IMG/VR virus record: IMGVR_UViG_3300020577_004340
Location: 32,001-96,000 of that record
Source of the DNA: a virus
Lineage: Duplodnaviria; Caudoviricetes
Strand: one strand, 5' to 3'
DNA length: 64,000 bases
In this document: positions 38,615 through 54,420 of the stretch, piece after piece
Numbering within the stretch: the stretch's first letter is position 1
Layout: each line of letters opens with the position of its first letter
Made by a program: the position numbers and the translations under genes
Notes under the pieces: model-generated
What the model was told of the DNA's origin: nothing
Seen by the model: only the letters and a program-made list of their open reading frames with translations
Database searches by the model: none

Positions 38615-39481
38615 ATGACAAAGATATTACCAAATAAATTACTTGTAAGTGAAAAATTTCTTTCAATTCAAGGAGAAGGAATTACCACAGGCGTACCGGC
38701 ATACTTTATTCGATTAGCTAATTGTAATTTGCAATGTGGAAGTTCCATTAAATTTTTAAATTCAATAAAAAAAGGAACTGTAATACCAGACCCGAGTAAG
38801 CCATTTGTTGGCGATTTAGAAGAATCTGGTGAAGCTACTTGGTCATGTGATTCAACTGCTGTATGGTTGAGAGGTAACTATGTTGAATTTCAAGATATTA
38901 TAGATGATTGGAAAGCTCAAGGAATTTATGACGACATTGAATCTGGACTGATTCATATAATATGGACAGGAGGTGAACCAACAATTAAACAACATCAAGA
39001 AAGTATTTATAATTTCAATGAATACTGGAAAGATATGGTATATGGTAACTCACCAGCATACCAACACTCTACTTTCCAGGCAATGACTCCATTCCAAGAA
39101 ATTGAAACGAATGGTACTAATTTATTAACATATGACTTGTTTGTAGGTATTAATCAAATTAATTGTTCTCCTAAATTATCAAATTCCGGAATGGCAGCTA
39201 AACAACGTATCAATCCTAATGTTATCACACAATTCAAAAATCATTGGAATGTCCAATTTAAATTTGTAGTATCAACTGAAGATGATATAATTGAAATGTT
39301 TAATGATTTTATTACCCCATTTAATATTCCACTAAAAAATGTGGTATGTATGCCAGCATTAACTTCACAAAAAGATTTCTTTGAACGTACAAAATGGATA
39401 ATGGAAATGGCAAAAAAATATAAATTTATTGGATTGACGAGAAATCATATTGCGGCATGGAATGAATTAACTGGAGTTTAA
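38615..39481 (+). CDS. queE: 7-carboxy-7-deazaguanine synthase (radical SAM)
   Basis: E.F.SIQGEG..TG.P..F.RL..CNL.C, long insert, W.CD, TGGEP, IETNG, SPKL. Confidence 0.9.
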   Translation: MTKILPNKLLVSEKFLSIQGEGITTGVPAYFIRLANCNLQCGSSIKFLNSIKKGTVIPDPSKPFVGDLEESGEATWSCDSTAVWLRGNYVEFQDIIDDWKAQGIYDDIESGLIHIIWTGGEPTIKQHQESIYNFNEYWKDMVYGNSPAYQHSTFQAMTPFQEIETNGTNLLTYDLFVGINQINCSPKLSNSGMAAKQRINPNVITQFKNHWNVQFKFVVSTEDDIIEMFNDFITPFNIPLKNVVCMPALTSQKDFFERTKWIMEMAKKYKFIGLTRNHIAAWNELTGV

Positions 39482-40518: not shown

Positions 40519-41256
40519 ATGAGTATTTTTGAAGGAATTAGCGTTGTCAATGGGGAATTAAATTTTGATTGGGGTAAAGACTCGAGTCAAGATGTAATTC
40601 CTTTGAAAATACAGAACTACAATAAGCGGGTATCAACAATATCTAAATTCCCATATTATCTGGCATATCGTTTTCCTAAAACAGTCCCCAAAGAATCTAA
40701 AGATCGAGTTAGGGAATTAATAAAATATTTAAAGACTCCTAAAACAAAAGATGTTGAATTGATGGTTAATAAGGCAGTTATGCAATTTAATAATATTGAT
40801 TCGTTAAATTCATATGATACTGTTGTATTACCCCAATCAAGTAGCGTCTTATTAAAATTGATATTATCAAAAATAAAGCCTAAATTAAATCAACATGTCA
40901 CGATTACCAACCAAGCAATTGTAAAATTGCATGCAAGTGAAGTGACATTTAAAATGGATAAATTTGAAAAGTTAAACGACATACAAAAGAAAGCATTTGT
41001 AAAGGCTGTAATGTCAAAGAAAAATTTAGATAATTTCAAAATGACAAATCTCCACGCCAGACAACGTTCATTAATTGACCAGTTTTTATCATTATCCAAT
41101 GATTTTTGGATTAGTAAGATTGTAAATAAGAAAGTATTATTTATTGATGATATAACCACAACGGGTGCAACAGTTGCAGCAGCTTCAAAATTATTATTGG
41201 ATAAAGGTGCTAATAAAGTAATGTCTTTTATATTCTTAGGCCAACAAGATATTTAA
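40519..41256 (+). CDS. type I phosphoribosyltransferase-fold protein
   Basis: VLFIDDITTTGAT PRPP-binding loop. Confidence 0.75.
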   Translation: MSIFEGISVVNGELNFDWGKDSSQDVIPLKIQNYNKRVSTISKFPYYLAYRFPKTVPKESKDRVRELIKYLKTPKTKDVELMVNKAVMQFNNIDSLNSYDTVVLPQSSSVLLKLILSKIKPKLNQHVTITNQAIVKLHASEVTFKMDKFEKLNDIQKKAFVKAVMSKKNLDNFKMTNLHARQRSLIDQFLSLSNDFWISKIVNKKVLFIDDITTTGATVAAASKLLLDKGANKVMSFIFLGQQDI

Positions 41257-42250: not shown

Positions 42251-42871
42251 ATGAGTGATATTTTATTAAAATACGCTAATGATAACATTCAATTAACCCA
42301 TACTGAACGGGAGAATGTTATAACAAAAGCTGCCGAGGCATATGCTTTATTTTTAGATGCATTGCAAATTGATTGGAAAAATGACCCTAATTCGAGTAAT
42401 ACCCCATTACGAGTAGCTAAATCGTATGTTAATGATTTGATAACTGGTTGTTATGTACCGCCACCAGATGCTACAGCATTTGATAATTTACAGAATTATG
42501 ATGGCATAGTATGTCAGACAAATATAGAAGTGAATTCAATATGTTCACACCACCACCTTCCATTCATTGGGAAAGCCCACGTTGCATACATCCCCGGTAA
42601 AAAAGTAGTTGGGTTATCAAAGCTAAATAGAATTGTTGAGTGGTTCTCTAGACGACCACAAGTCCAAGAAAATTTAACAATGCAAATACATGATTTTGTA
42701 AATGTAATATGTGAAGGAAATGGGGGTGTAGCTGTAATGATTGAATGTAATCATTTATGTGCATGTCTACGTGGGGTGAAACATGATTCTGTAATGAAGA
42801 CGGCAAAATTGTCTGGTGCATTTAAAACAGATGAAATGGCTAGAGAAGAATTTTATAATTTTGTAAAATAA
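42251..42871 (+). CDS. folE: GTP cyclohydrolase I
   Basis: TP.RVAK, S.CSHH.LPF.G..H.AY.P, GLSKL.R, RRPQ.QE.LT, H.C...RG. Confidence 0.95.
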   Translation: MSDILLKYANDNIQLTHTERENVITKAAEAYALFLDALQIDWKNDPNSSNTPLRVAKSYVNDLITGCYVPPPDATAFDNLQNYDGIVCQTNIEVNSICSHHHLPFIGKAHVAYIPGKKVVGLSKLNRIVEWFSRRPQVQENLTMQIHDFVNVICEGNGGVAVMIECNHLCACLRGVKHDSVMKTAKLSGAFKTDEMAREEFYNFVK

Positions 42872-42879
42872 TATAAAAA

Positions 42880-43227
42880 ATGCACACTTCAATATTTGTA
42901 ACATTGCAATTAGAAGGATTACATCGATGGCCATTAGCAAATGAAATTCAACCAGAAGTTGGATTCTTAAGTAATGTGCATCGACACATGTTTCATTTTT
43001 ATTTAGAAAAATTAGTTTATCATGATGATCGTGATATTGAATTTATTATGTTTAAGCGTGACGTCACATCATATTTATTAAAAACATATATGAATAGTAA
43101 TGGAGTATTAGATTTTGATTCAAAGAGTTGCGAAATGATAGCAATTGATTTATTAAATAAATTTAAATGCACAATTGTATCAGTTTCCGAAGATGGGGAA
43201 AATGGTGCTAAAATAACTGCTATATGA
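42880..43227 (+). CDS. QueD-like T-fold protein with LxxxHRHxF motif (DpdL-like candidate decarboxylase)
   Basis: EG.H.W, LSNVHRHMF, DR..EFI.FK, SCE.IA, V.EDGENGA. Confidence 0.65.
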   Translation: MHTSIFVTLQLEGLHRWPLANEIQPEVGFLSNVHRHMFHFYLEKLVYHDDRDIEFIMFKRDVTSYLLKTYMNSNGVLDFDSKSCEMIAIDLLNKFKCTIVSVSEDGENGAKITAI

Positions 43228-44210
43228 TTCATTATTTACCATTAGAACATATTGATTCTAGATATACTTGTCATATGGATTTTGATATAGTTAATTATTT
43301 AAATCAAGAAAATATTGATTATAATCGAATATATCCTGATATAGATGTATATCCACTTAAACCAGGTCAATTTTTGGAATCATCAACAACTATTAAATTT
43401 AAAAATTTACAATTATCTGAAATCTCTGATGGGTATTATTCAGATAAAATACTGTCAGAAGATGTTATTTGGTCAAGTGATTTGTGGTTTCCTGGTATTG
43501 AATCAATTGGATATTTGAATTTATTTCACAAAAAAAACATTAAATTACAAGGATTACTACATGCAGGATCTTGGACAACTTCAGATTCAATTTCTAAGAT
43601 TGAACGTTGGGGGAAATATTTTGAGGAAATGGTATTTGATATATCAGAAAAGTTGTTTGTTGCAAGTGAGTTTATAAAAAATGATATTTTGCAAAAGCGG
43701 AATGTACCGGCAGATAAATTAATTGTAACGCCGTTTCCGTTAGATTCAAAATTGAAAAATTATAAACCAATTGCTGAAAAAGAAGATATTATATTGTTTA
43801 CTGGGCGAAATCATCCAGAAAAACAGCCTTGGTTATTTAATGAATTACGAACGATATTAGAAAAGAAATATCCTACATATAAATTTATATGGACATTGGA
43901 TTCGAATTTAACAAAAGATGAATATTACACATTATTAAATAAATCAAAATATATAGTTAGCTTCGCCTTGCAAGAAAATTTTGGGTATAGCATTGCTGAA
44001 GCAGTTTATTTAGGTGTAATTCCAATACTACCAAATCAAGTAGTATATCCTGAATTTTATAATGAGGCTTATTTATACACTACATTTACTCAATGCGTTG
44101 AATTATTAGATAGTTTAATGTCAAACGAAACTAAACCAACAATTGCTCCATTTAAAATCAATTCATTTAAGCAATTAAATCACCAATCATTACATAATTG
44201 GTTTAACTGA
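43224..44210 (+). CDS. GT-B (GT4-like) glycosyltransferase
   Basis: ILF.GR...EKQP, LQE.FG....EA...G..P..P. Confidence 0.8.
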   Translation: MIHYLPLEHIDSRYTCHMDFDIVNYLNQENIDYNRIYPDIDVYPLKPGQFLESSTTIKFKNLQLSEISDGYYSDKILSEDVIWSSDLWFPGIESIGYLNLFHKKNIKLQGLLHAGSWTTSDSISKIERWGKYFEEMVFDISEKLFVASEFIKNDILQKRNVPADKLIVTPFPLDSKLKNYKPIAEKEDIILFTGRNHPEKQPWLFNELRTILEKKYPTYKFIWTLDSNLTKDEYYTLLNKSKYIVSFALQENFGYSIAEAVYLGVIPILPNQVVYPEFYNEAYLYTTFTQCVELLDSLMSNETKPTIAPFKINSFKQLNHQSLHNWFN

Positions 44211-44226
44211 ACATAACAATATTTTT

Positions 44227-45459
44227 ATGAATAAAAAATTTATTTATTTTCCATCATTCTCTGCAGGGGAAATGGGTGGTGGTTTAAGCAAAAACACAAT
44301 ACTACGAAATGATCTACCATCGAGATTTTATTCAACCGATTTTCCAGAAAAATACCGACATCCGTATTTTTTAACTACTGCTGGCCATTTTTATAAGAAA
44401 AAAAATTTTAAAACTACTTGGGGATTTACTGATAATCCTGATGTTCTGTTATTAGGCGATTCAGGAGGATATCAAATTGCTGCTGGGACTATTAAATGGG
44501 ATAAAAATATTGTCCCAGTTATATTAGATTGGTTGGAATGTAATTCACATATTGCAATGAATTTGGATATACCCCCTAGATTAAAATATGTTGATAAATT
44601 TGATGAATGTTTAGATATTAGCATTCAAAATTTTAAATACTTTTCCGAAAATAGATCTGGGCAAACTAAATTTTTAAATGTTTTGCAAGGAAATTCAGAC
44701 GTATCATATGATAAATGGTATAATAATGTTAAATCATTTGATTTTGATGGGTGGGGTATTGGAGGATGCGGTGGATCATTGTATCGATTTATGGCAGGAA
44801 TAATGGTGTTATTAGAAGGTAAAGAACATTATAATGTCAACAATAAATATTTACATATATTAGGAACTAGTAAAATTATAGATTTTTTGATTCTATCTCA
44901 ATTACAAAAATCATTAGATAAATGTAACTCAAAAATACAAGTAACTACTGACTCGTCAACGCCAAGTCGTGCTACTGTTTTTGGTATGTTTTATAATGAC
45001 GCTAATTTAAGAAGGGGGTCTTTTTCATCAATACATTTTCCAAAAGAAAGAGGTGATTCAATTAAAAATAAGAGTGTACATTCAACAAATTCATTACGTG
45101 ATAGTGTAAGTTTAATGCCTGAAATTATTGAATTTGATACTCTCTTGCAAGGGGCATATACCCAAGATGATTTAATTAATTGGACTAGTGAAGCATATAT
45201 ATCTTTAGTATTGCATAATTTCATGTTCTTCAATTCTATTATTGATAAAATTAATATGTATGTTGATGGGCATCCGTATATTCTTGAACAAGTTATAAAT
45301 CCTGATTCATTTCTCATATTAAAATCAATTGACGAGATGGTGCTGGCGTATGAAAATGGAACTACTCCTCGAAAAGTTTTTGATTCATATAAACAATTGT
45401 ATTATAAATTGTCAAACACTAATATCCCGACTACTACTATTCAACATTCATTTTTTTAA
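44227..45459 (+). CDS. dpdA: TGT-fold 7-deazaguanine insertion enzyme (DpdA-like)
   Basis: GDSGGYQ, M.LD.PP, LNVLQG, GWGIGG, H.LG, T.DSS.P; lies in an operon with folE. Confidence 0.75.
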   Translation: MNKKFIYFPSFSAGEMGGGLSKNTILRNDLPSRFYSTDFPEKYRHPYFLTTAGHFYKKKNFKTTWGFTDNPDVLLLGDSGGYQIAAGTIKWDKNIVPVILDWLECNSHIAMNLDIPPRLKYVDKFDECLDISIQNFKYFSENRSGQTKFLNVLQGNSDVSYDKWYNNVKSFDFDGWGIGGCGGSLYRFMAGIMVLLEGKEHYNVNNKYLHILGTSKIIDFLILSQLQKSLDKCNSKIQVTTDSSTPSRATVFGMFYNDANLRRGSFSSIHFPKERGDSIKNKSVHSTNSLRDSVSLMPEIIEFDTLLQGAYTQDDLINWTSEAYISLVLHNFMFFNSIIDKINMYVDGHPYILEQVINPDSFLILKSIDEMVLAYENGTTPRKVFDSYKQLYYKLSNTNIPTTTIQHSFF

Positions 45460-45468
45460 AATAATTTA

Positions 45469-47565
45469 ATGTATCAAAATATATATTTCGATAAATTCCA
45501 AAATGAAATCCATATTTGGGATGACAAGACGGGGTATGACCGAGTTAAATTCAAAAATTATGCTTATTTATTAAATGATACTGGAGATTACACTACAATT
45601 GATGGGGCAAGATGTAATAAGGTATATAGTTGGTCTGAAACTGCTGTTAAAACTAAAATGGTATGTGAACATGATGTTCCGGAGACAACTAGATATTTAA
45701 TTGATAGATATGGAGATTCAGATGCCGTTTCTGATAATGTAATTACAATGTTCTTTGACATTGAGGTAGCTAAAGAGGGAAAATATAGTACGCCAGAAGA
45801 TGCAAACAATACAATTACATCAATTGCATATTATACTGAATTGCATGGTTACCATACATTGTTATTGGATAAACATAATCCACCTAGAACATACACAACG
45901 ATAATTAAACCAGATAAAAAAGAACTTAGTATAGAGGTTAAAACATTTAATGATGAAAAATCATTATTGTTTGCTTTTTTAAAGGAATACCGAAATATTA
46001 GCCCCCATATATTAACTGGTTGGAATATTGATTACTATGATATTCCTTATTTATACAACAGAATGATAAATGTTTTGGATGTTCAATATGCCAATCAATT
46101 ATCACCTATAAATAAAGTCAGAGTAAAGAAATATGACAATAACAATATAATTCAAATTGCAGGGGTTACCGCATTAGATTACTTGATGTTGTATAAGAAA
46201 TTTACTTATGCGGAGCAATCTAATTATAGATTAAATACAATATCTAATATAGAGCTTAAACGTTCTAAAATAGAATATACAGGGGATTTAGATTATTTAT
46301 ATTCAACTGATATTAATAAATTTATCGAATATAATGTTGTCGACGTTGATTTAGTATTGGAACTAGATAGAAAATTAGATTTAATTAATATAGCTAGGGG
46401 TATATGCCATAAAGGACATGTGTCATACGATGATATCGTTTTTACTAGTAAATATCTGGATGGTGCAGCATTGACATATTGTCGTAGAAACAATTTAATT
46501 GCAACCAGTACCAGAACAAGTGGAGAATCAACAACTGCTGAAGGGGCATATGTAAAAGACCCAACGCCTGGGTTGTATAAATGGGTATATGATTTGGATT
46601 TAACATCATTATATCCAATGAATATTATTAGTCTAAATATTTCACCTGAGACTAAATTCGCAAAAATATTAAATTGGGATGAAGAGGATTATGTTAATTC
46701 CCCTAATAAATTGTATAATATTAAATTATTCCGAGATGATACTGTTTTAGGAAATTTTAGTAATGAATTTGGAGTAAAAAGCGATTCAGTTAGAATATCT
46801 GGTAGCCAAGCTTTGTTGGAATTTGTTAAAAAACATAATTTATCAATTGCATCCAATGGAGTGATGTACACATTAGATAAGATTGGATTGATACCAGCAA
46901 TATTAGATACTTGGTTTGCTGATAGAGATGATTTTAAAAATTTACGAAAGCAATATGAAAAGTCGGGTGATTTAGTCTTGGCTGCATATTATGATAAGCA
47001 GCAATTAATTACTAAAATTATGTTGAACTCTTTTTATGGGGTGTTATTGCTTGAATCATTTAGAGTTTATGACATAGACAGCGGCGAAGCGGTTACAATT
47101 ACTGGAAAATCGGTAATTAAATGGGGAAGTAAAATGGCTAATTATTTCTATAATAAAAAGTTAGGAAATGAACATATTACAGATTATACTATATATATTG
47201 ATACGGATTCGGTAGCGGGTGATTCAAACATTATAGTTAACGGGGATACCCCCAGAACGTTAGATGATGTATTTGCAGATTCAATTAAAAATTCGTATTT
47301 TGTAGACTCCAATCATAGAGAATTTACATTTCCATCAATTAAATTGCCATATTATGATGAATCTACAAAATCAGTTAAATTAGGAGATGTTGAATATATT
47401 GAGCGCCATTACATAAAAAAGCGAAGATACAAAATTACACTAAAATCTGGAAAGCATATAGTAGTGACCGAAGATCATAGTGTTATGGTGGAATTGGATA
47501 ATGGGGAGTTGGTACAAAAATTGACTAAAGATCTAACAATATCCGATAAAGTAATTTCTATTTAA
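45469..47565 (+). CDS. family B DNA polymerase, N-terminal part fused to split intein N (47209-47562)
   Basis: FDIE, GWN...YDIPY, DLTSLYP, K..LNS.YG, YIDTD then SVAGDS...VTEDHS. Confidence 0.93.
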   Translation: MYQNIYFDKFQNEIHIWDDKTGYDRVKFKNYAYLLNDTGDYTTIDGARCNKVYSWSETAVKTKMVCEHDVPETTRYLIDRYGDSDAVSDNVITMFFDIEVAKEGKYSTPEDANNTITSIAYYTELHGYHTLLLDKHNPPRTYTTIIKPDKKELSIEVKTFNDEKSLLFAFLKEYRNISPHILTGWNIDYYDIPYLYNRMINVLDVQYANQLSPINKVRVKKYDNNNIIQIAGVTALDYLMLYKKFTYAEQSNYRLNTISNIELKRSKIEYTGDLDYLYSTDINKFIEYNVVDVDLVLELDRKLDLINIARGICHKGHVSYDDIVFTSKYLDGAALTYCRRNNLIATSTRTSGESTTAEGAYVKDPTPGLYKWVYDLDLTSLYPMNIISLNISPETKFAKILNWDEEDYVNSPNKLYNIKLFRDDTVLGNFSNEFGVKSDSVRISGSQALLEFVKKHNLSIASNGVMYTLDKIGLIPAILDTWFADRDDFKNLRKQYEKSGDLVLAAYYDKQQLITKIMLNSFYGVLLLESFRVYDIDSGEAVTITGKSVIKWGSKMANYFYNKKLGNEHITDYTIYIDTDSVAGDSNIIVNGDTPRTLDDVFADSIKNSYFVDSNHREFTFPSIKLPYYDESTKSVKLGDVEYIERHYIKKRRYKITLKSGKHIVVTEDHSVMVELDNGELVQKLTKDLTISDKVISI

Positions 47566-47581
47566 ACAACATCCAGATATC

Positions 47582-47668
47582 GAGGATGTTCTTATAATAT
47601 GGGAAAGTGATTTTAGAAACAACAAAACTGAAACAATTAAAAAATGTCTAGAATTTATAAACCAGTAA
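47582..47668 (+). pseudogene. C-terminal remnant of a Vsr/DUF559-like endonuclease
   Basis: Alternative frame reads EDVLIIWESDFRNNKTETIKKCLEFINQ*; no start codon; overlaps the IntC start. Confidence 0.65.
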
Positions 47669-48597
47669 CAGATGAAATTTCTTCAATCGAAGAGTTGCCA
47701 TTGGAAGATGTGTATATGTATGACATTGGGATGAAAGATAGTCCCCACACCTTTTTTGCCAATAATATATTGGTACACAACAGTTTATTTTTACCAATAC
47801 TTCCATTATTAAATGATGTTAATATTGAAGAGTTAACAGATACAGAATTAATTGAATTGGCTAAACCATTAGTTAAAGAAGTTCAAGAATTTATAAATAC
47901 ATCATACACACCATATGCGAAGAAATTCCATATGATAGATACTCACCGTTGGGACATTAAACAAGAATTAATTGCTAGACGAGCCTTTTGGATTACAAAG
48001 AAAAGGTATGCTCAATGGATAGTTGTTAAAGAAGGATTTCCCATAGAAAAATTGGATGTGAAGGGTTTGGACGTAGTTAGATCATCATTTCCAACAGCAT
48101 TTAGAAATTTATTAAAACAAGTTTTAATTGACATTTTACATGATAAATCTAAAAAAGATTTAGATATATTATTGTTAAATTTCAAAAAAACAGTTAATAC
48201 CACTGAATTAAATAACATTTTATTCCCTACAGGTGCAAAGGAAATTAAAAAATATGAAACTGGTGTTATAGGTAGAGTTAAATCTGGAACTCCAGCACAT
48301 ATCAAATCTGCTATTAATTATAACCATTTAATGGATTTGTTTAATATTGTAGATATACCAAAAATATCAGATGGGGATAAAATATTATGGGGATATTTAC
48401 ACAATAATCCGTATAATTTCGAATCTTTAGCTATAACTGGTAATTTCGATGATGAAAAGATTATTGAATTTATGGAGAAATATGTAGATAAAAATAAAAT
48501 ATTTGAATCAGGACTGTTAAAAAAACTTCAGGCATATTGGGATGCTATGGGATGGGGAAAAATTACATTTAATTCCAATGTTAATAAATTTTTCTAG
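47644..48597 (+). CDS. split intein C (47644-47781) fused to the C-terminal part of family B polymerase
   Basis: YDI.....HTFFANNILVHN then SLF; KKRYA, KGL..VRS. Confidence 0.93.
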   Translation: MSRIYKPVTDEISSIEELPLEDVYMYDIGMKDSPHTFFANNILVHNSLFLPILPLLNDVNIEELTDTELIELAKPLVKEVQEFINTSYTPYAKKFHMIDTHRWDIKQELIARRAFWITKKRYAQWIVVKEGFPIEKLDVKGLDVVRSSFPTAFRNLLKQVLIDILHDKSKKDLDILLLNFKKTVNTTELNNILFPTGAKEIKKYETGVIGRVKSGTPAHIKSAINYNHLMDLFNIVDIPKISDGDKILWGYLHNNPYNFESLAITGNFDDEKIIEFMEKYVDKNKIFESGLLKKLQAYWDAMGWGKITFNSNVNKFF

Positions 48598-49539: not shown

Positions 49540-50082
49540 ATGGAATATAAGAAATTATTGAGTGAAAATGAAATTGACACTATTGTAGACAGTTTAGCTT
49601 TCTATTTATCGAGGGATTATTTAGATGAAACCAATCAATATTTATTTGTCAATGTATTAGATGGAGGCACTCCTTTTTTTAATTTATTGTATGATAAATT
49701 AGATAACACACGGTTTAAATTAATTCCAGATTCTGTAAAATGTAAATCATATACTGGTGTGAATACAACGGGTTGGAAATTAATACAACCGATTCATAAT
49801 ACCGATGAAACAATTAAGAAAGTTATAATAGTTGATGACATTCTAGATAGTGGACTTACATTATATAATTTAACAGATTATTTTATGGAATTAGGATTTA
49901 ACGAAATAATTTGTGTTACACTATTGGAAAAAGATGTACTTAATAAAACATATCATCCTGTCCCCAAATATATATCGGGTCATTACATAAATGACATTTG
50001 GGTTTGTGGTTTTGGTATGGATTCAATAGATGGAACCCGCAGGGATGCGAGAGAAATATATCAAATATTAATGTTAATATAA
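49540..50082 (+). CDS. hypoxanthine/guanine phosphoribosyltransferase-like
   Basis: VL.GG..F, KSY, IIVDDILDSGLTL, LL.K, V.GFGMD. Confidence 0.85.
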   Translation: MEYKKLLSENEIDTIVDSLAFYLSRDYLDETNQYLFVNVLDGGTPFFNLLYDKLDNTRFKLIPDSVKCKSYTGVNTTGWKLIQPIHNTDETIKKVIIVDDILDSGLTLYNLTDYFMELGFNEIICVTLLEKDVLNKTYHPVPKYISGHYINDIWVCGFGMDSIDGTRRDAREIYQILMLI

Positions 50083-50426: not shown

Positions 50427-51240
50427 ATGGGAAAAAAACAGTATATTACTAGAAAAGGGAATTTTGATTCGGGGCATCGTGTTATGAACGAACGTCTTAA
50501 ATGTTTTCATGTCCATTTTTAATTGATGGTGGACACTAAATTGGGTGAATTGCTGGAACGCTAAGTTATTTAATATGCCAATCAGCAGCCAAGACTAACT
50601 TAGGTTTAAAGAGTTAGTAAGGTTCAGAGACTAGGAAGTGAGCCTAACAATATTCTTCCCACGAGCGCCCAACACTTATTAATAGGTGATGATATAGTCC
50701 GAACTTATAAGAAATTATAAGAAGTGAATGATAAAGAACTTTCACGATAACATTTTGGGTCATACGTATTTGTATCAATTAACTTTTTCCTTTAATTCCA
50801 TGGAAGAAATTGGTTATGCAATTGATTTTAAAGAAATCAAAAGAGTAATGTGTCAATGGATAGACGATTATTTAGATCACGGTATAATTTTAAATCCACA
50901 TGATTCAGTATTAATATCAGCTGCTGCAGAGTTAGGCAGTAAAATGTGGTTAATGTCCCTAAATGGGATTGGCGAATATTGTAACCCATCAGTAGAGAAT
51001 ATCGCTAAAGAAGTGTGCATTGCAATTGATACTTTGACGAGACTTTTATATGCCAAATCCTCTACTAAATTAACTTTACATAAAGTTAAAATATATGAAA
51101 CACCTAATTGTTTTACTACAATTAAAAGAGAAGATATACCTAAAAGTGAAGTGAATAATTTTTTAGATAAAAACATGCAATTTCTTGTTGATTATGCTAA
51201 AGAAAAGGGTGTTGTTCAATACGATGATAGAAAATTGTAA
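50427..51240 (+). CDS. queD: 6-carboxytetrahydropterin synthase, spliced: join(50427..50516,50758..51240), 190 aa
   Basis: Exon 1 FDSGHR......KC..VH plus exon 2 GHTY...IDF..IK......LDH...NPS.ENIA...YETP rebuilds CxxxHGH. Confidence 0.9.
50517..50757 (+). ncRNA. group I self-splicing intron (IA-like, 241 nt, no ORF)
   Basis: P1 TGTCCAT/GTGGACA with U.G at the splice site; P3 TTGGGTG/CGCCCAA; P AATTGCTGGAA; Q AATCAGCAGC; R TCAGAGACTA; S GATATAGTCC; terminal G. Confidence 0.92.
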
Positions 51241-51263: not shown

Positions 51264-51476
51264 ATGGAAAAATTTTATGAAGTAAAAGTGGTGGTTAAAA
51301 CTGAAAATGACAAGGGTGGATTAAAAAAATCAACTGAAACTTTTTTAGTTAGTGCTGTAGGTGTTACCGATGCTGAAGTTATCATTACTAAAGATTTTGA
51401 AGGTGATAGGAGAGAATGGGAAATTTCTGCTGTAAGAGAAACCAAAATAATTAAGGTATTATCTGCAAATGAGTAA
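51264..51476 (+). CDS. DUF4494-like small protein
   Basis: F.E.KV.....G..KK..E..LV.A...T.AE...I.AV.ET.I..V. Confidence 0.65.
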   Translation: MEKFYEVKVVVKTENDKGGLKKSTETFLVSAVGVTDAEVIITKDFEGDRREWEISAVRETKIIKVLSANE

Positions 51477-52521
51477 GAGAATATATATCTTCGATAATTC
51501 AACTTCTGGACTAAGATATAATATTCAATGGAGTAAGTTTATTCCAGATGAATTACAATCTTGGGGTTATGAAGTTCAGGTTATAAGTGGCCTTGAATTA
51601 AATTACCATAAGTTGGGTTATCGAGGAAATATATTAAATAGTGGCGCCCTAATAACTAATTTAGGGAATCTATTATTGGAAAGTAATTTAACTGAAAAAA
51701 GTATTTTTATATTCCCTGAAGCAAGAAATCCAATGGTCATTTATCTTAATGAATTACGTCAAATGTATGATTTAGATATTACAATTATTGGGTGGTGGAA
51801 TGACCATACATTCAATACCGATGGGAATATACGAAAACAATTTTCCAGAAGAAAACGAGATTGGACGGTTAAAGTTGATAGAGCCTTAATGTCGGCATAT
51901 GATTATAATATGTGTTACACAGATCGACAATATAAGGTATTAAGTTACAACAACCGCCATGAAAAGAATATATATAAATGTTGTTTGCCATTATCGAGTA
52001 TCAATGGAGAAAATGTAGATAGATTGTTAGGATATGATTATACAAAGGAAGACAGAATTATCATTAATACTAATTTTAACAATCGTTATGACCCTGATTT
52101 TATAAAGACATTACAGTTATTATATAAAGATTATGAATTTCATGTAGTACACGAACAGAATTTAACATATAAAGAATATTATCAGATTGTACGTAAGAGT
52201 AAACTTTGTATTAATGTTAATCAGACTGATACTACACCTTGGTCAATTTATGAAAATTTAGTTTTAGGAGCAATTCCAATACTACCTGCCACTGAATTAT
52301 ACACACATATATTTTCAGAAAAACAATGTTTATTTTTTAAAAAACACTTGATGAAAAAACCTTATATTAAATACATGAGAAACACTGAACATATTACAGA
52401 ATATGTTAAACGTTTATTAACCGATTATGACGATATGTATGCGCAATTGGATATTCAAAGCATCCATGACGCATATTTCAATTCAAACGATTTAAAACAG
52501 ATTTTAAATGAGCTTAAATAG
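51469..52521 (+). CDS. divergent GT-B glycosyltransferase-like protein (probable paralog of 43224)
   Basis: LRY..QW N-terminus; LT..EYY....KSK...DT....IYE...LG.IPILP...Y..F matches the 43224 C-terminus. Confidence 0.6.
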   Translation: MSKRIYIFDNSTSGLRYNIQWSKFIPDELQSWGYEVQVISGLELNYHKLGYRGNILNSGALITNLGNLLLESNLTEKSIFIFPEARNPMVIYLNELRQMYDLDITIIGWWNDHTFNTDGNIRKQFSRRKRDWTVKVDRALMSAYDYNMCYTDRQYKVLSYNNRHEKNIYKCCLPLSSINGENVDRLLGYDYTKEDRIIINTNFNNRYDPDFIKTLQLLYKDYEFHVVHEQNLTYKEYYQIVRKSKLCINVNQTDTTPWSIYENLVLGAIPILPATELYTHIFSEKQCLFFKKHLMKKPYIKYMRNTEHITEYVKRLLTDYDDMYAQLDIQSIHDAYFNSNDLKQILNELK

Positions 52522-53140
52522 AAACATTGAAAATACCTTATGGGTAGAAAAATACAGACCAAAAACAATGGACGATTATGTTGGTAATCAATCGATAATC
52601 GATACTATTAAAACGTATATTGAGAATGATGATATTCCAAATCTATTATTATATGGTAGTGCAGGAACTGGTAAGACAACGTTGGGAAAAATCGTAACTA
52701 ATACACTTGATTGTGATTGTCTATATATAAATGCGTCCGATGAAAATAATATTGATACTGTTCGAGATAAGATTAAATCATTTGTTAGCTCAATTGGTTT
52801 TAAGAAATGGAAATTGGTATTTTTAGACGAATGTTTAGAAGCGGGTACATTAGTTCGTATCTTGAGAAATGGGGGTGAAATATCCATACCAATTGAAGAT
52901 TTGGACCCAATTAATGATTTAGTTAAATCATTTAATGTTGATACAAAATGTATTGAGTGGGTTCCGTTTACATTGTATTACAAAGATATACAGAATATTT
53001 GGGAAATTGAATTAGAGAATGGATTTATTATTAGATGTACAGATGACCATAAATGGTATGTATTAGATGACGTTGGAGAGACGATAGTAGTAAAAACGAT
53101 TGATTTACATAAATATGACCATATATTAAGTCCAAAGTAA
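52508..53140 (+). CDS. clamp loader large subunit (gp44/RFC), N part fused to split intein N (52832-53137)
   Basis: LWVEKYRP, G.AGTGKTT, NASD, VFLDE then CLEAGT...CTDDHKW. Confidence 0.93.
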   Translation: MSLNRNIENTLWVEKYRPKTMDDYVGNQSIIDTIKTYIENDDIPNLLLYGSAGTGKTTLGKIVTNTLDCDCLYINASDENNIDTVRDKIKSFVSSIGFKKWKLVFLDECLEAGTLVRILRNGGEISIPIEDLDPINDLVKSFNVDTKCIEWVPFTLYYKDIQNIWEIELENGFIIRCTDDHKWYVLDDVGETIVVKTIDLHKYDHILSPK

Positions 53141-53181
53141 TACATATAAATTTAAAAACATGTTGTATATGTGGTGTTGGT

Positions 53182-54420
53182 ATGACTAAAAATCATTTAC
53201 GTCGGCATAACATATCTAGACGGGAGTATTATGATTTATATGTAAAGAGTGATACTGAAGGTATTTGTAATGGGTGTGGAATACCAACACAATTCATTAG
53301 CTGTACCTTTGGATATATAAATAATTGTATATTATGTTCTAACCGTTTAATAGGAAAAAACAAAGCGGATACAAATAAAAAGAAATTAATAAAATGTACA
53401 TGTAAAATATGTAATACAGAATTTTTAAATAAAATTTTTAGAAATATATGTACTAGTCGTAAATGTCGAATATACATTCAAACATGTCCAATAGATGATT
53501 ATACAAAGGTATCGTTCATTGAATATATGAGTTGCCCATATTGTAATAAAAAATTTAATAAGTTATCCGGTTTCAAAACTCATTTACGTACTCATTTTTC
53601 GTTCGAACGCGTGCCTGAGATTCTACAATATATTGGAATGTCCGTTTGGAAAACGGCTATACCAAAATGTAAATATTGTAATAATTTATTTATTGAAAAA
53701 TATTCCGATAAATTCTACAATTCAGTTGGACAATGTTGTCCGGAGTGTTTTGAGTCCAAGATATGGTTATCTAATGAATTTCGTGACAGAAAGGCGATAG
53801 GTAAAAAAATTGGGGAAACTAGAAAAATTACCAATAAAACTGAAAGAGGTAAAGCTATTCTGAAGAGAGTTGGCGAAATAAATTCCAAGAAAATGCAGTT
53901 ATATTTAAAAACTGATATTGGTAAAGAATCTATGTTATTACGTGCGAAGAAGAATTCAATTAAGATGAAGAAGAATATTGCAAATGGCAAATTCACTCCA
54001 TGTATTACAAATTCTTGGACACATTGGAAATCACAGATAATTTTAGAAGACGGTACAATTAAAAAATTTAGAAGTAGTTGGGAAGCATGTGTATGGAATA
54101 GTAATAGGCATTTGGAGTATGAAACAATTAGGATACCATATCAATACAATGAAGACACTAAAAATTATGTTGCTGATTTTTACGACAAAGAAACCAATAC
54201 TATATATGAAATAAAACCAAAAAAGACTTGGGATAAAGTTCATACTAAAATGGAACAGGTGATATTTTATTGTTCAGAAAAAAAGATTAATTTTATTTGG
54301 ATAAATGAAGATAATATATTATCTTATATAAACACTTTAGATTTTGAAGGTGAGAATTTAACACAATTAAATAAATTATACAATGGAATTACAACAAATA
54401 AAAATAAAAACAATAACTAA
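53182..54420 (+). CDS. free-standing endonuclease (Zn fingers plus TnsA-like PD-(D/E)XK domain) between intein halves
   Basis: Many CxxC motifs; FRSSWE...LEYE..RIPY......Y..DF......EIKP. Confidence 0.8.
   Translation: MTKNHLRRHNISRREYYDLYVKSDTEGICNGCGIPTQFISCTFGYINNCILCSNRLIGKNKADTNKKKLIKCTCKICNTEFLNKIFRNICTSRKCRIYIQTCPIDDYTKVSFIEYMSCPYCNKKFNKLSGFKTHLRTHFSFERVPEILQYIGMSVWKTAIPKCKYCNNLFIEKYSDKFYNSVGQCCPECFESKIWLSNEFRDRKAIGKKIGETRKITNKTERGKAILKRVGEINSKKMQLYLKTDIGKESMLLRAKKNSIKMKKNIANGKFTPCITNSWTHWKSQIILEDGTIKKFRSSWEACVWNSNRHLEYETIRIPYQYNEDTKNYVADFYDKETNTIYEIKPKKTWDKVHTKMEQVIFYCSEKKINFIWINEDNILSYINTLDFEGENLTQLNKLYNGITTNKNKNNN

Follow-up and report, generated by a model that had tools for sequence, protein, structure and literature searches.

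On the evidence of sequence comparison, the operon considered here is a real and widespread variant of the deazaguanine DNA-modification system, one with a glycosyltransferase (GT) tied to DpdL and DpdA, an enzyme described in no paper that we found. It lies on the plus strand at 42251-45459 of the window, a 64,000-nucleotide stretch of DNA of an uncultured phage taken from a 123,975-bp contig that is ~66% complete, and consists in tight succession of folE, a dpdL-type, putative T-fold gene, a GT4/GT-B glycosyltransferase gene and a TGT-family, DpdA-like gene, with polB next. We give about an even chance to the reading that this is a QueC-less system replacing G in DNA with a 7-deazaguanine, in which a tailoring cassette of DpdL and the GT4 enzyme adds a sugar.

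Linkage of the glycosyltransferase to DpdL and DpdA

In IMG/VR, DpdL adjoins the GT or lies <= ~2.5 kb upstream of it in 78 of 80 GT loci; a contig end cuts the locus in the remaining two, leaving 78 of 78 informative loci with DpdL. Approached from the transglycosylase, a member of this GT superfamily is present in 64 of 80 DpdA-family loci, mostly directly upstream of dpdA, and the DpdL-GT-DpdA arrangement is kept in each of three deep clades of the GT. Among cultured phages the GT-DpdL pairing occurs in PA5oct, ACP17, Phosso, X1, BUDD, BCSR5 and BUCT-ZZ01 (six lineages), and in the cultured-phage collection on its own a GT accompanies the DpdL gene in 18 of 29 records, or ~6 of 13 lineages; megablast of the operon itself against cultured phages gave no match. 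Co-occurrence of the GT with dpdA and dpdL had been proposed as a test in a preliminary description of this DNA, and these counts, the seven cultured phages included, speak strongly in its favour.

Might the GT nevertheless have an unrelated acceptor, be it hydroxymethyl-pyrimidines in DNA as in T-even phages, glycans of the host envelope or proteins of the virion, and owe its position to an accident of gene order? Phage GT-B enzymes that glucosylate 5-hydroxymethylcytosine (5hmC) are well known and many phage glycosyltransferases are morons. We nonetheless think this very unlikely, as chance gene order cannot explain the presence of DpdL beside or shortly upstream of the GT in every informative locus of unrelated lineages; further, the T4 enzymes AGT and BGT are absent from the 50 best VIA entries for the GT and from the Foldseek matches listed, an absence still compatible with some similarity, and the 124-kb contig (~66% complete) has no PF00303 or PF02511 match, that is, no ThyA-family hydroxymethylase or ThyX.

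Two close relatives, L086 and L003, share the folE...dpdA-polB backbone and have a DpdA that is 58-59% identical, but their folE-dpdA slot holds QueC-based genes. DpdL plus GT thus behaves as an exchangeable tailoring cassette; a long DpdA is not peculiar to phages with the GT either, members of its family also serving alongside QueC cassettes. A scan of bacterial genomes with the GT profile yielded two orthologs, both on phage-like MAG contigs with DpdL (L171, L172) and one of them with a DpdA of the operon's family too; the other 78 matches were generic GT4 C-terminal domains with neither DpdL nor DpdA, so that bacterial islands for this GT clade were not reproduced.

The operon, its neighbours and their products

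The genes lie where they were first placed, on the plus strand. In operon order up to polB the intergenic spacers are 8, -4, 16 and 9 nt, the negative one being an ATGA overlap in which the start ATG of the GT gene shares bases with the stop TGA of dpdL, which bears out the coupling of the two genes that had been noticed from the letters. The polB reported after the TGT-family gene is indeed there, with its start at 45469, though it occupies two ORFs. The opening gene, folE (42251..42871, +), encodes GTP cyclohydrolase I (Pfam PF01227 GTP_cyclohydroI, 4.5e-50; phrog_2197, 3.5e-60). The statement that no queC or queF is visible in the window held when the search was extended to the whole 123,975-bp contig, in which the sole QueF match is a cross-match of folE, but with the contig ~66% complete, absent genes are possibly elsewhere.

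The remaining genes for 7-carboxy-7-deazaguanine (CDG) flank the operon, so the CDG-forming set FolE, QueD and QueE is encoded in full. Upstream is a queE-like radical SAM gene (38615..39481, +; 288 aa; CDG synthase) with a full-length match to phrog_2076 (QueE-like, 5.2e-37); its product gives partial matches under the cut-offs to the NCBIfam QueE models, and its cluster cysteines are oddly spaced, CNLQC being followed by the next Cys 36 residues on. Downstream, the queD placed at 50427 in the preliminary description is present but broken by a group I intron (50517..50757, +; Rfam RF00028, 110.4 bits, E 8e-28, at 50489-50721), with boundaries inferred from protein homology. Exon 1 (50427..50516, +), as far as ...KCFxxH, matches the N-terminal part of the homologs that L011 and L046 carry without interruption; exon 2 (50758..51240, +) falls in an ORF, 50728-51240, that matches Pfam PTPS (3.2e-17) and phrog_2389 (1.1e-19); and joining the exons between CFHVH and GHTY gives back the CxxxHGH motif of the uninterrupted homologs.

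A phosphoribosyltransferase gene at 49540..50082 (+; Pfam Pribosyltran, 2.4e-14) may be an accessory, with salvage of released guanine or nucleotide formation as possible roles; its homologs adjoin polB in 19 of 80 DpdA loci, and the BUCT-ZZ01 cluster has an XGPRT within it. At 51469..52521 (+) a second GT-B glycosyltransferase gene, with weak Pfam glycosyltransferase matches, had been taken for a probable paralog of the first. The two are related, but distantly so (BLASTP 1e-9 over 96 residues; 38.8 bits against the GT profile), and the second falls in a cluster with those of L006 and L144, which adjoin neither DpdL nor DpdA. As homologs occur in L086 and L144, relatives lacking DpdL and the first GT, it is a gene of the genome backbone and not part of the cassette. 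Hence the case for a GT neighbour in each half of the pathway is weakened, and the earlier interpretation is, taken as a whole, partly supported, its strength being the co-occurrence and the pathway logic.

The dpdL-type gene (42880..43227, +) encodes a 115-aa, putative T-fold paralog of QueD, a proposed CDG decarboxylase, which has LxxxHRHxF (L30-x3-H34-R35-H36-x-F38) in place of the CxxxHGH of QueD. That motif, 44% identity to the DpdL of Cellulophaga phage phiST (CGPG_00067) and a match to phrog_17812 (2e-31) uphold the DpdL-type identity first suggested. The family profile has a full-length collinear match to PH0634 chain 2dj6 (E 0.029), and hhalign gives a probability of 5.7% against canonical QueD; the published HHpred value for phiST DpdL and a T-fold (PTPS/QueD-like) structure is 99.9% (PMC10516641). 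The annotated DpdL ORFs of MA9V-3 and Bakedbeans have N-terminal extensions that match neither MazG nor QueE.

The DpdL invariants H15, H34, H36, R51, E54, S83-C84-E85 and E104 are common to GT-less and GT-linked homologs, and a chemical difference of DpdL between the two sets of phages was accordingly rejected. The same identity of active-site residues suggests the same core chemistry in both, and could be taken to mean that the GT is a biosynthetic helper, its glycosyl product being a passing intermediate or carrier on which the formation or delivery of 7-deazaguanine depends, with the DNA holding plain 2'-deoxy-7-deazaguanosine (dDG) as in phiST. Moreover, in phiST and MA9V-3 a P-loop kinase occupies the GT's position, between DpdL and DpdA3, and two group-transfer enzymes could be alternative activators. 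Against this, decarboxylation of a heteroaromatic acid requires a free, not an esterified, carboxylate, we know of no precedent for a GT4 enzyme as transient activator in base biosynthesis, and decoration fits better with retention of the GT in three deep clades, often with a second GT paralog present. A helper role seems to us unlikely.

The glycosyltransferase itself (43224..44210, +; 328 aa) has an alignment-based AF2 model (pLDDT 87.8) with the two Rossmann domains of a GT-B fold, as in GT4-type retaining enzymes. In VIA it aligns with many GT4 structures at Z 21-24 over 273-311 residues, sucrose-phosphate synthase (Z 24.4), BshA (23.9) and MshA (23.6) among them. Across 22 homologs there is no change at the donor-binding positions R195, K200 and E251-x7-E259, and the GRxxxxKxP stretch of the enzyme aligns to WlaC; against Pfam Glycos_transf_1 the enzyme scores 21.0 bits, under the gathering cut-off of 26.4, and many homologs at ~50% identity have a precomputed PF00534 match. 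From the GT-B/GT4 model and the invariant donor-binding residues the enzyme looks catalytically active, though the fold gives no information on its acceptor. Fused forms were sought at 575-2000 aa and did not turn up, though little weight attaches to that, and in the literature we found no paper on this transferase or on DNA with a sugar-bearing purine.

Among the structural neighbours are UDP-glucose:tetrahydrobiopterin (BH4) glucosyltransferases (Z 21.4-21.9), and it is conceivable that DpdL and the GT make a soluble pterin or deazapurine glycoside outside DNA, perhaps to serve as a cofactor or to inhibit host enzymes: DpdL is a PTPS/QueD paralog with folE adjoining, the GT is acidic, as is its family (median pI 5.8), and nature does make free deazapurine glycosides, as HuiG demonstrates (PMC7439116). 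Yet the BH4 enzymes rank under other GT4 enzymes, whose top Z is 24.4, no sepiapterin-reductase-type gene was seen, the GT directly adjoins dpdA in most DpdA-family loci, the cassette sits in the slot of QueC-type base-tailoring genes, and the DpdL of phiST goes together with a base in DNA (PMC10516641). A soluble product is on these grounds quite improbable.

The last gene of the operon (44227..45459, +) encodes a 410-aa, long-type DpdA-like protein with a GDSGGYQ motif. The earlier assignment as a TGT/DpdA-like enzyme stands at the level of the family: on its own the protein has no match in Pfam, PHROG, NCBIfam or PDB, so that the assignment rests on its relatives, over 900 metagenomic homologs, some of them annotated queuine/archaeosine tRNA-ribosyltransferase. 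Pfam TGT (PF01702) is matched by 8 of 18 family members, at best with 8.6e-7; hhalign gives the family a probability of 94.6% against ACP17 DpdA; and alignment to E. coli Tgt is weak and at motif level (E 0.0015). Invariant are D78 (DSGG), D114, Q154-G155 and T241-D242-S243, the aspartates among them (D78, D114, D242) representing the catalytic Asp motifs of the TGT superfamily. Sequence and profile searches of PDB with the family gave no match, and a single-sequence AlphaFold model is uninformative (pLDDT 32). By hhalign there is no detectable similarity (probability 0.2%) to phiST DpdA3 (CGPG_00065, gp042, 259 aa), for which phmmer finds no match in 160 viral loci with the GT or the operon's DpdA family. 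By these comparisons the operon's DpdA groups with the long ACP17/X1/PA5oct type and not with the DpdA3 subfamily (phiST, CP220 type). The GT-linked DpdL phages have a long DpdA of 410-540 aa; the GT-less DpdL phages phiST, MA9V-3 and D479 have the short DpdA3.

Proposed pathway and its significance

FolE, QueD (after intron splicing) and QueE would, by established pathway knowledge, convert GTP to CDG, which DpdL, a putative Zn-type T-fold enzyme, would process, probably to 7-deazaguanine as proposed for phiST. The GT would set a sugar from a host nucleotide-sugar on the deazaguanine, and the long-type DpdA, to go by its family membership, would swap the modified base for G in DNA, and virion DNA is predicted to end up with a sugar-bearing 7-deazapurine as a shield from restriction. 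The first half of this scheme, FolE/QueD/QueE to CDG and then DpdL with no QueC, was anticipated in the preliminary description and fits the published phiST model; decarboxylation of CDG to 7-deazaguanine by DpdL is a proposal in that work too (PMC10516641). Does the GT act before or after insertion? We incline slightly to glycosylation of the free base over glycosylation on DNA, as the nearest structures are GT4 enzymes acting on small molecules, the family is acidic and HuiG is proposed to act on a free 7-deazapurine. There are points against a sugar: 7-deazaguanine has no obvious C7 hydroxyl or amine as acceptor, and a sugar on N2 should interfere with base recognition of the TGT type. We put at slightly below even the chance that a glycosylated 7-deazapurine, made by the GT4 enzyme and DpdL and inserted by a long DpdA, is present in virion DNA here and in PA5oct, ACP17, X1, BCSR5 and BUCT-ZZ01.

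What would it mean? The deazaguanine DNA bases known to us number eight, all with small groups at C7, and sugars on natural DNA are, to our knowledge, confined to pyrimidines: glucosyl- and arabinosyl-5hmC, base J and the thymine derivatives of SP15 and Pbunavirus. A sugar-bearing purine, if real, would as far as known be the first in natural DNA, and a widespread one, in marine and freshwater phages. As the GT stays with DpdL and DpdA across hundreds of phage contigs, and in therapy-relevant phages such as PA5oct, a new class of purine hypermodification is predicted. If it exists, it would bear on defences (restriction, CRISPR and those that sense modification, for instance the END nucleases targeting PA5oct), as well as on nanopore and enzymatic handling of such DNA, and it could explain why no dDG arose in E. 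coli from dpdL and dpdA alone. Cultures exist for several of the hosts and phages, which puts the question within direct experimental reach.

Comparison with known systems

The T4 alpha- and beta-glucosyltransferases are phage GT-B enzymes that transfer sugar from a UDP-sugar onto 5-hydroxymethylcytosine in DNA, thereby evading restriction. Their acceptor is a pyrimidine hydroxymethyl group provided by dCMP hydroxymethylase, none such being present in this contig, and unlike them the operon's GT is GT4-like with an EX7E motif. The only sugar-bearing 7-deazaguanines we know of in nucleic acid are the galactosyl- and mannosyl-queuosine of vertebrate tRNA, and the queuosine mannosyltransferase GTDC1 is, like our enzyme, GT4-type; they differ from the present system in being in RNA and in having as acceptor queuosine's cyclopentenediol, a group that this phage is unable to make.

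HuiG, of the huimycin pathway in Kutzneria albida, is proposed to take a free 7-deazapurine base and attach GlcNAc at its 2-amino group (PMC7439116) and belongs to PF13439, a GT4-type domain family (bioRxiv 10.64898/2026.04.15.718813). Going by its description, it resembles the operon's GT in being encoded with FolE/QueD/QueE genes, but its setting is a secondary-metabolite pathway with QueC (preQ0 core), without DpdA and with a soluble antibiotic as product.

The DpdL/DpdA3 system of phiST (Cui, Hutinet et al., NAR 2023, PMC10516641) likewise has FolE, QueD and QueE without QueC, a DpdL with LxxxHRHxF and the same invariants, and a TGT-family enzyme adjoining replication genes; its DNA has been measured to contain dDG at 100% of G. 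It differs from the operon in having a P-loop kinase (AAA_18) between DpdL and the 259-aa DpdA3, and in lacking this GT family, phiST being absent from the tblastn matches and the GT profile empty at its locus.

The same module as in the operon is present in the Acidovorax phage ACP17, as QueD-FolE-x-DpdA(424)-GT(342)-DpdL(127)-QueE, and in the Pseudomonas jumbo phage PA5oct, as split polB, clamp, DpdA(540)-GT(353)-DpdL(125)...QueE. ACP17 dpdL and dpdA expressed in E. coli without the GT gave no dDG (PMC10516641, which makes no mention of the ACP17 GT), but neither did phiST dpdL and dpdA in the same host (PMC10516641), so that the ACP17 result does not single out the lack of the GT. PA5oct DNA resists cutting at G-containing restriction sites, the base not being identified there (PMC12191111). 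For both ACP17 and PA5oct the annotation makes the GT a hypothetical protein; in the PA5oct twin vB_Pa-PAC2 it is called a GT4 family protein. In both phages the order is DpdA-GT-DpdL as against DpdL-GT-DpdA in the operon, and protein identities to the operon are 25-36%; the GT of ACP17 is the best viral structural match to that of the operon, with a TM of 0.84.

Gene layout around 42251-45459

Four tightly packed genes occupy 42251-45459 on the + strand and are followed by polB; the gene set and positions in the preliminary description were correct, subject to four amendments. The first gene is folE (42251-42871, +), with a GTP cyclohydrolase I match of 4.5e-50, and 8 bases past it starts a dpdL-type ORF of 115 aa (42880-43227, +; phrog_17812, 2e-31). 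The glycosyltransferase (GT) ORF of 328 aa (43224-44210, +) is coupled to this putative T-fold gene as had been described, its ATG overlapping the dpdL TGA as ATGA, and 16 bases beyond it begins a DpdA-like ORF of 410 aa with a GDSGGYQ motif (44227-45459, +), from whose stop the polB start is 9 bases away. Upstream lies queE (38615-39481; phrog_2076, 5e-37). Its product has CNLQC with the next Cys 36 residues on, after an insertion, an unusual spacing for a radical SAM cluster, and NCBIfam QueE models match it in pieces only.

Two amendments concern continuity. queD is present downstream (50427-51240) but is not continuous: a group I intron that carries no ORF and measures about 241 nt divides it, scoring 110 bits against Rfam RF00028 at 50489-50721. 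The exon junction, placed by homology, is CFHVH/GHTY, inside the catalytic CxxxHGH, and joining restores the motif of uninterrupted homologs. polB does follow the operon but is encoded in two ORFs of 698 and 317 aa with 78 nt between them (45469-48597), the first of which has a weak Intein_splicing match at its end (2.6e-7); polB of phage PA5oct is split too, its two parts separated by a gene for a homing endonuclease. Another replication gene that seems to be broken up is that of the clamp loader (52508-54420), whose ORF ends with an intein-splicing-like stretch (Pfam, 4e-5) and is followed by a 412-aa zinc-finger/endonuclease ORF (phrog_15427, 6e-22).

The source contig (IMG/VR, 123,975 bp, about 66% complete) extends the absence of queC and queF beyond the window: there is no QueC in it, and the sole QueF match is the usual T-fold cross-match within folE. 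Nor does this partial contig hold a ThyA-family or ThyX gene, or a sugar nucleotidyltransferase. Phosphoribosyltransferase-like genes are at 49540-50082 (Pribosyltran, 2.4e-14) and 40519-41256 (weak, 7e-4); such genes adjoin polB at 19 of the 80 DpdA loci, and the cluster of phage BUCT-ZZ01 includes an XGPRT. They could serve in salvage of DpdA-released guanine or in deazapurine nucleotide formation as in tubercidin biosynthesis.

The encoded enzymes

Taken alone the 410-aa protein has no match in any library searched, and the TGT/DpdA-like label given to it earlier stands at the family level, where its relatives do point to TGT/DpdA. Over 900 metagenomic relatives exist, several annotated as queuine/archaeosine tRNA-ribosyltransferase; Pfam TGT is matched by 8 of 18 aligned relatives (best 8.6e-7), and the family profile aligns with the DpdA of phage ACP17 at 94.6% probability over 182 columns, the DSGG aspartate included. 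D78, D114, Q154-G155 and T241-D242-S243 are invariant in the family. Identity with the short DpdA3 of Cellulophaga phage phiST was ruled out (hhalign probability 0.2%).

The 115-aa protein carries L30-x3-H34-R-H36-x-F38 and is 44% identical to the product of the phiST DpdL gene. A profile of the DpdL family gives a full-length but borderline match (E 0.029) to the 115-aa chain 2dj6; for the phiST protein an HHpred link between DpdL and QueD has been published (PMC10516641).

The predicted structure of the transferase (alignment of 22 homologs; pLDDT 87.8) puts it among the GT4-type enzymes with a GT-B fold. Structure comparison and Foldseek matched the model with sucrose-phosphate synthase (Z 24.4), BshA (23.9), MshA (23.6) and PglA (23), while its closest viral structural match is an unannotated ACP17 protein (TM 0.84). 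Tetrahydrobiopterin glucosyltransferases come in at Z 21.4-21.9, and that the product is a soluble pterin or deazapurine glycoside strikes us as improbable. The enzyme looks catalytically intact, since R195, K200 and E251-x7-E259 are invariant in its family and its GRxxxxKxP stretch aligns with the GT4 enzyme WlaC.

Distribution of the module and the folE-dpdA slot

Does the transferase travel with deazaguanine genes in other phages? The preliminary description had proposed its co-occurrence with dpdA and dpdL as a check, and this was borne out. When IMG/VR was scanned with the GT profile and 80 loci were retained, a DpdL homolog was upstream of GT in 78, in most as the immediate neighbour and in the rest no more than about 2.5 kb away, and the two loci lacking it both begin at GT; folE is present in 65 of the 80 and queE in 49. 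An acceptor unrelated to deazaguanine is, to our minds, very improbable. Of 80 loci retained with the DpdA profile, 64 hold a GT of the same superfamily, usually as the gene just before dpdA, and 46 of these also a recognisable DpdL. Three deep clades emerge when 124 non-identical transferases of both sets of loci are placed in a tree, and the DpdL-GT-DpdA arrangement occurs in all three. Eight IMG/VR loci (L097, L103, L108, L113, L124, L126, L139, L141) have a clade II/III GT directly upstream of dpdA and no DpdL detected in flanks of up to 8 kb each side; they may have DpdL elsewhere, or a GT-DpdA pairing that dispenses with it.

Profile matches back the module in six cultured phages: ACP17 (QueD-FolE-x-DpdA-GT-DpdL-QueE), PA5oct and relatives (DpdA-GT-DpdL beside the split polB, near QueE), Phosso (DpdL-GT), BUCT-ZZ01 (DpdA-DpdL-GT), X1 (GT-DpdA-DpdL-QueE) and BCSR5 (same module). 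In bacterial species genomes only two GT orthologs were found, both on phage-like MAG contigs; the orthologs known for this GT clade are thus all but confined to phages.

DpdL also occurs without the transferase. The order in two phages of Bacteroidota, phiST and Chryseobacterium phage MA9V-3, is DpdL, AAA_18 P-loop kinase, short DpdA3 (259-264 aa), and Vibrio phage D479 has a DpdA3 relative as well. The AAA_18/AAA_33 P-loop kinase-like gene (L166:7284-7781 in phiST; L167:4339-4809 in MA9V-3) is in the usual place of GT, between DpdL and DpdA3; the phiST gene was treated as unknown in PMC10516641. DpdA is long (416-540 aa) in each of the six cultured lineages with a linked GT, and no phiST-type DpdA3 is present in the 160 viral loci with GT or DpdA. 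The DpdL invariant residues are identical in the two groups, from which the chemistry of DpdL is probably the same in both and the difference comes after it.

Comparison with backbone relatives places the cassette. The window shares dUTPase, folE, dpdA, polB, clamp, phosphoribosyltransferase, queD and clamp loader with L086, a 124-kb contig that is its closest IMG/VR relative, and with L003, a 171-kb JGI contig; the DpdAs of both are 58-59% identical to that of the window. Between folE and dpdA, L086 (L086:6167-8008) has an NT5C-like 5'-nucleotidase, QueC and a 176-aa Rossmann-like protein with a weak RmlD match, and L003 (L003:5806-10001) a PPDK_N/PEP-utilizer-like protein, Gat-QueC, a 279-aa unknown and a class I methyltransferase that matches Methyltransf_25/31 and differs from the published DpdM family; the L003 slot is possibly for another undescribed preQ1-derived modification. 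With QueC and Gat-QueC genes filling it there, DpdL and GT by gene order occupy the exact slot where other phages hold the genes deciding which deazaguanine is made. The GT paralog reported at 51469 (51469-52521) is related but distant: it belongs to a small clade adjacent to neither DpdL nor DpdA, and, being kept in L086 and L144 which both lack DpdL and GT1 (the operon's transferase), reads as a backbone gene.

A possible route to sugar-bearing deazaguanine

FolE, QueD and QueE yield 7-carboxy-7-deazaguanine (CDG), and DpdA-type enzymes replace DNA guanine with a deazaguanine. Genes, gene order, family assignments and co-inheritance being observed, a route can be envisaged in which the first three enzymes would supply CDG, DpdL would decarboxylate it (an activity proposed by others, PMC10516641), the GT4 enzyme would add a sugar and DpdA would place the sugar-bearing base in DNA. 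That the transferase glycosylates deazaguanine and that the product ends up in DNA has, we judge, about an even chance. The chemical weak point is that 7-deazaguanine has no obvious sugar acceptor at C7; the sugar could be taken by the CDG carboxylate or by N2, or form a C-glycoside with the pyrrole ring, which is electron-rich. Alternatively, though we consider this unlikely, GT would be a helper and the DNA product plain 2'-deoxy-7-deazaguanosine (dDG), which was measured as 100% in phiST DNA (PMC10516641); none of the phages measured there carries GT.

That paper never mentions a glycosyltransferase, the literature search found no paper discussing the phage GT of the DpdL module, and nothing further was found on DpdL, glycosylated deazaguanine or ACP17. 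The module is nevertheless common and already in public phage genomes, its GT there unannotated or generically annotated. New here are the comparison of swapped cassettes, the GT tree with its three clades, the tie of GT presence to the long DpdA type, the identity of DpdL active sites between GT-linked and GT-less phages, and the near-restriction of orthologs of this GT clade to phages.

Is the sugar added before or after the base enters DNA? T4 AGT and BGT are absent among the structural matches listed for the model, and members of the GT family are acidic proteins, with a median pI of 5.8 and, in the window copy, a net charge of about -8 on the N-terminal acceptor domain. Action at the DNA level, as in T4, is slightly less favoured; we lean slightly to the free base because GT is tied tighter to DpdL than to DpdA, is acidic, resembles small-molecule GT4 enzymes and has a precedent in HuiG. 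The system is a variant of the known kind of deazaguanine DNA modification. HuiG, a GT4-type enzyme of huimycin biosynthesis, is proposed to glycosylate a free 7-deazapurine at the 2-amino group (PMC7439116; bioRxiv 10.64898/2026.04.15.718813).
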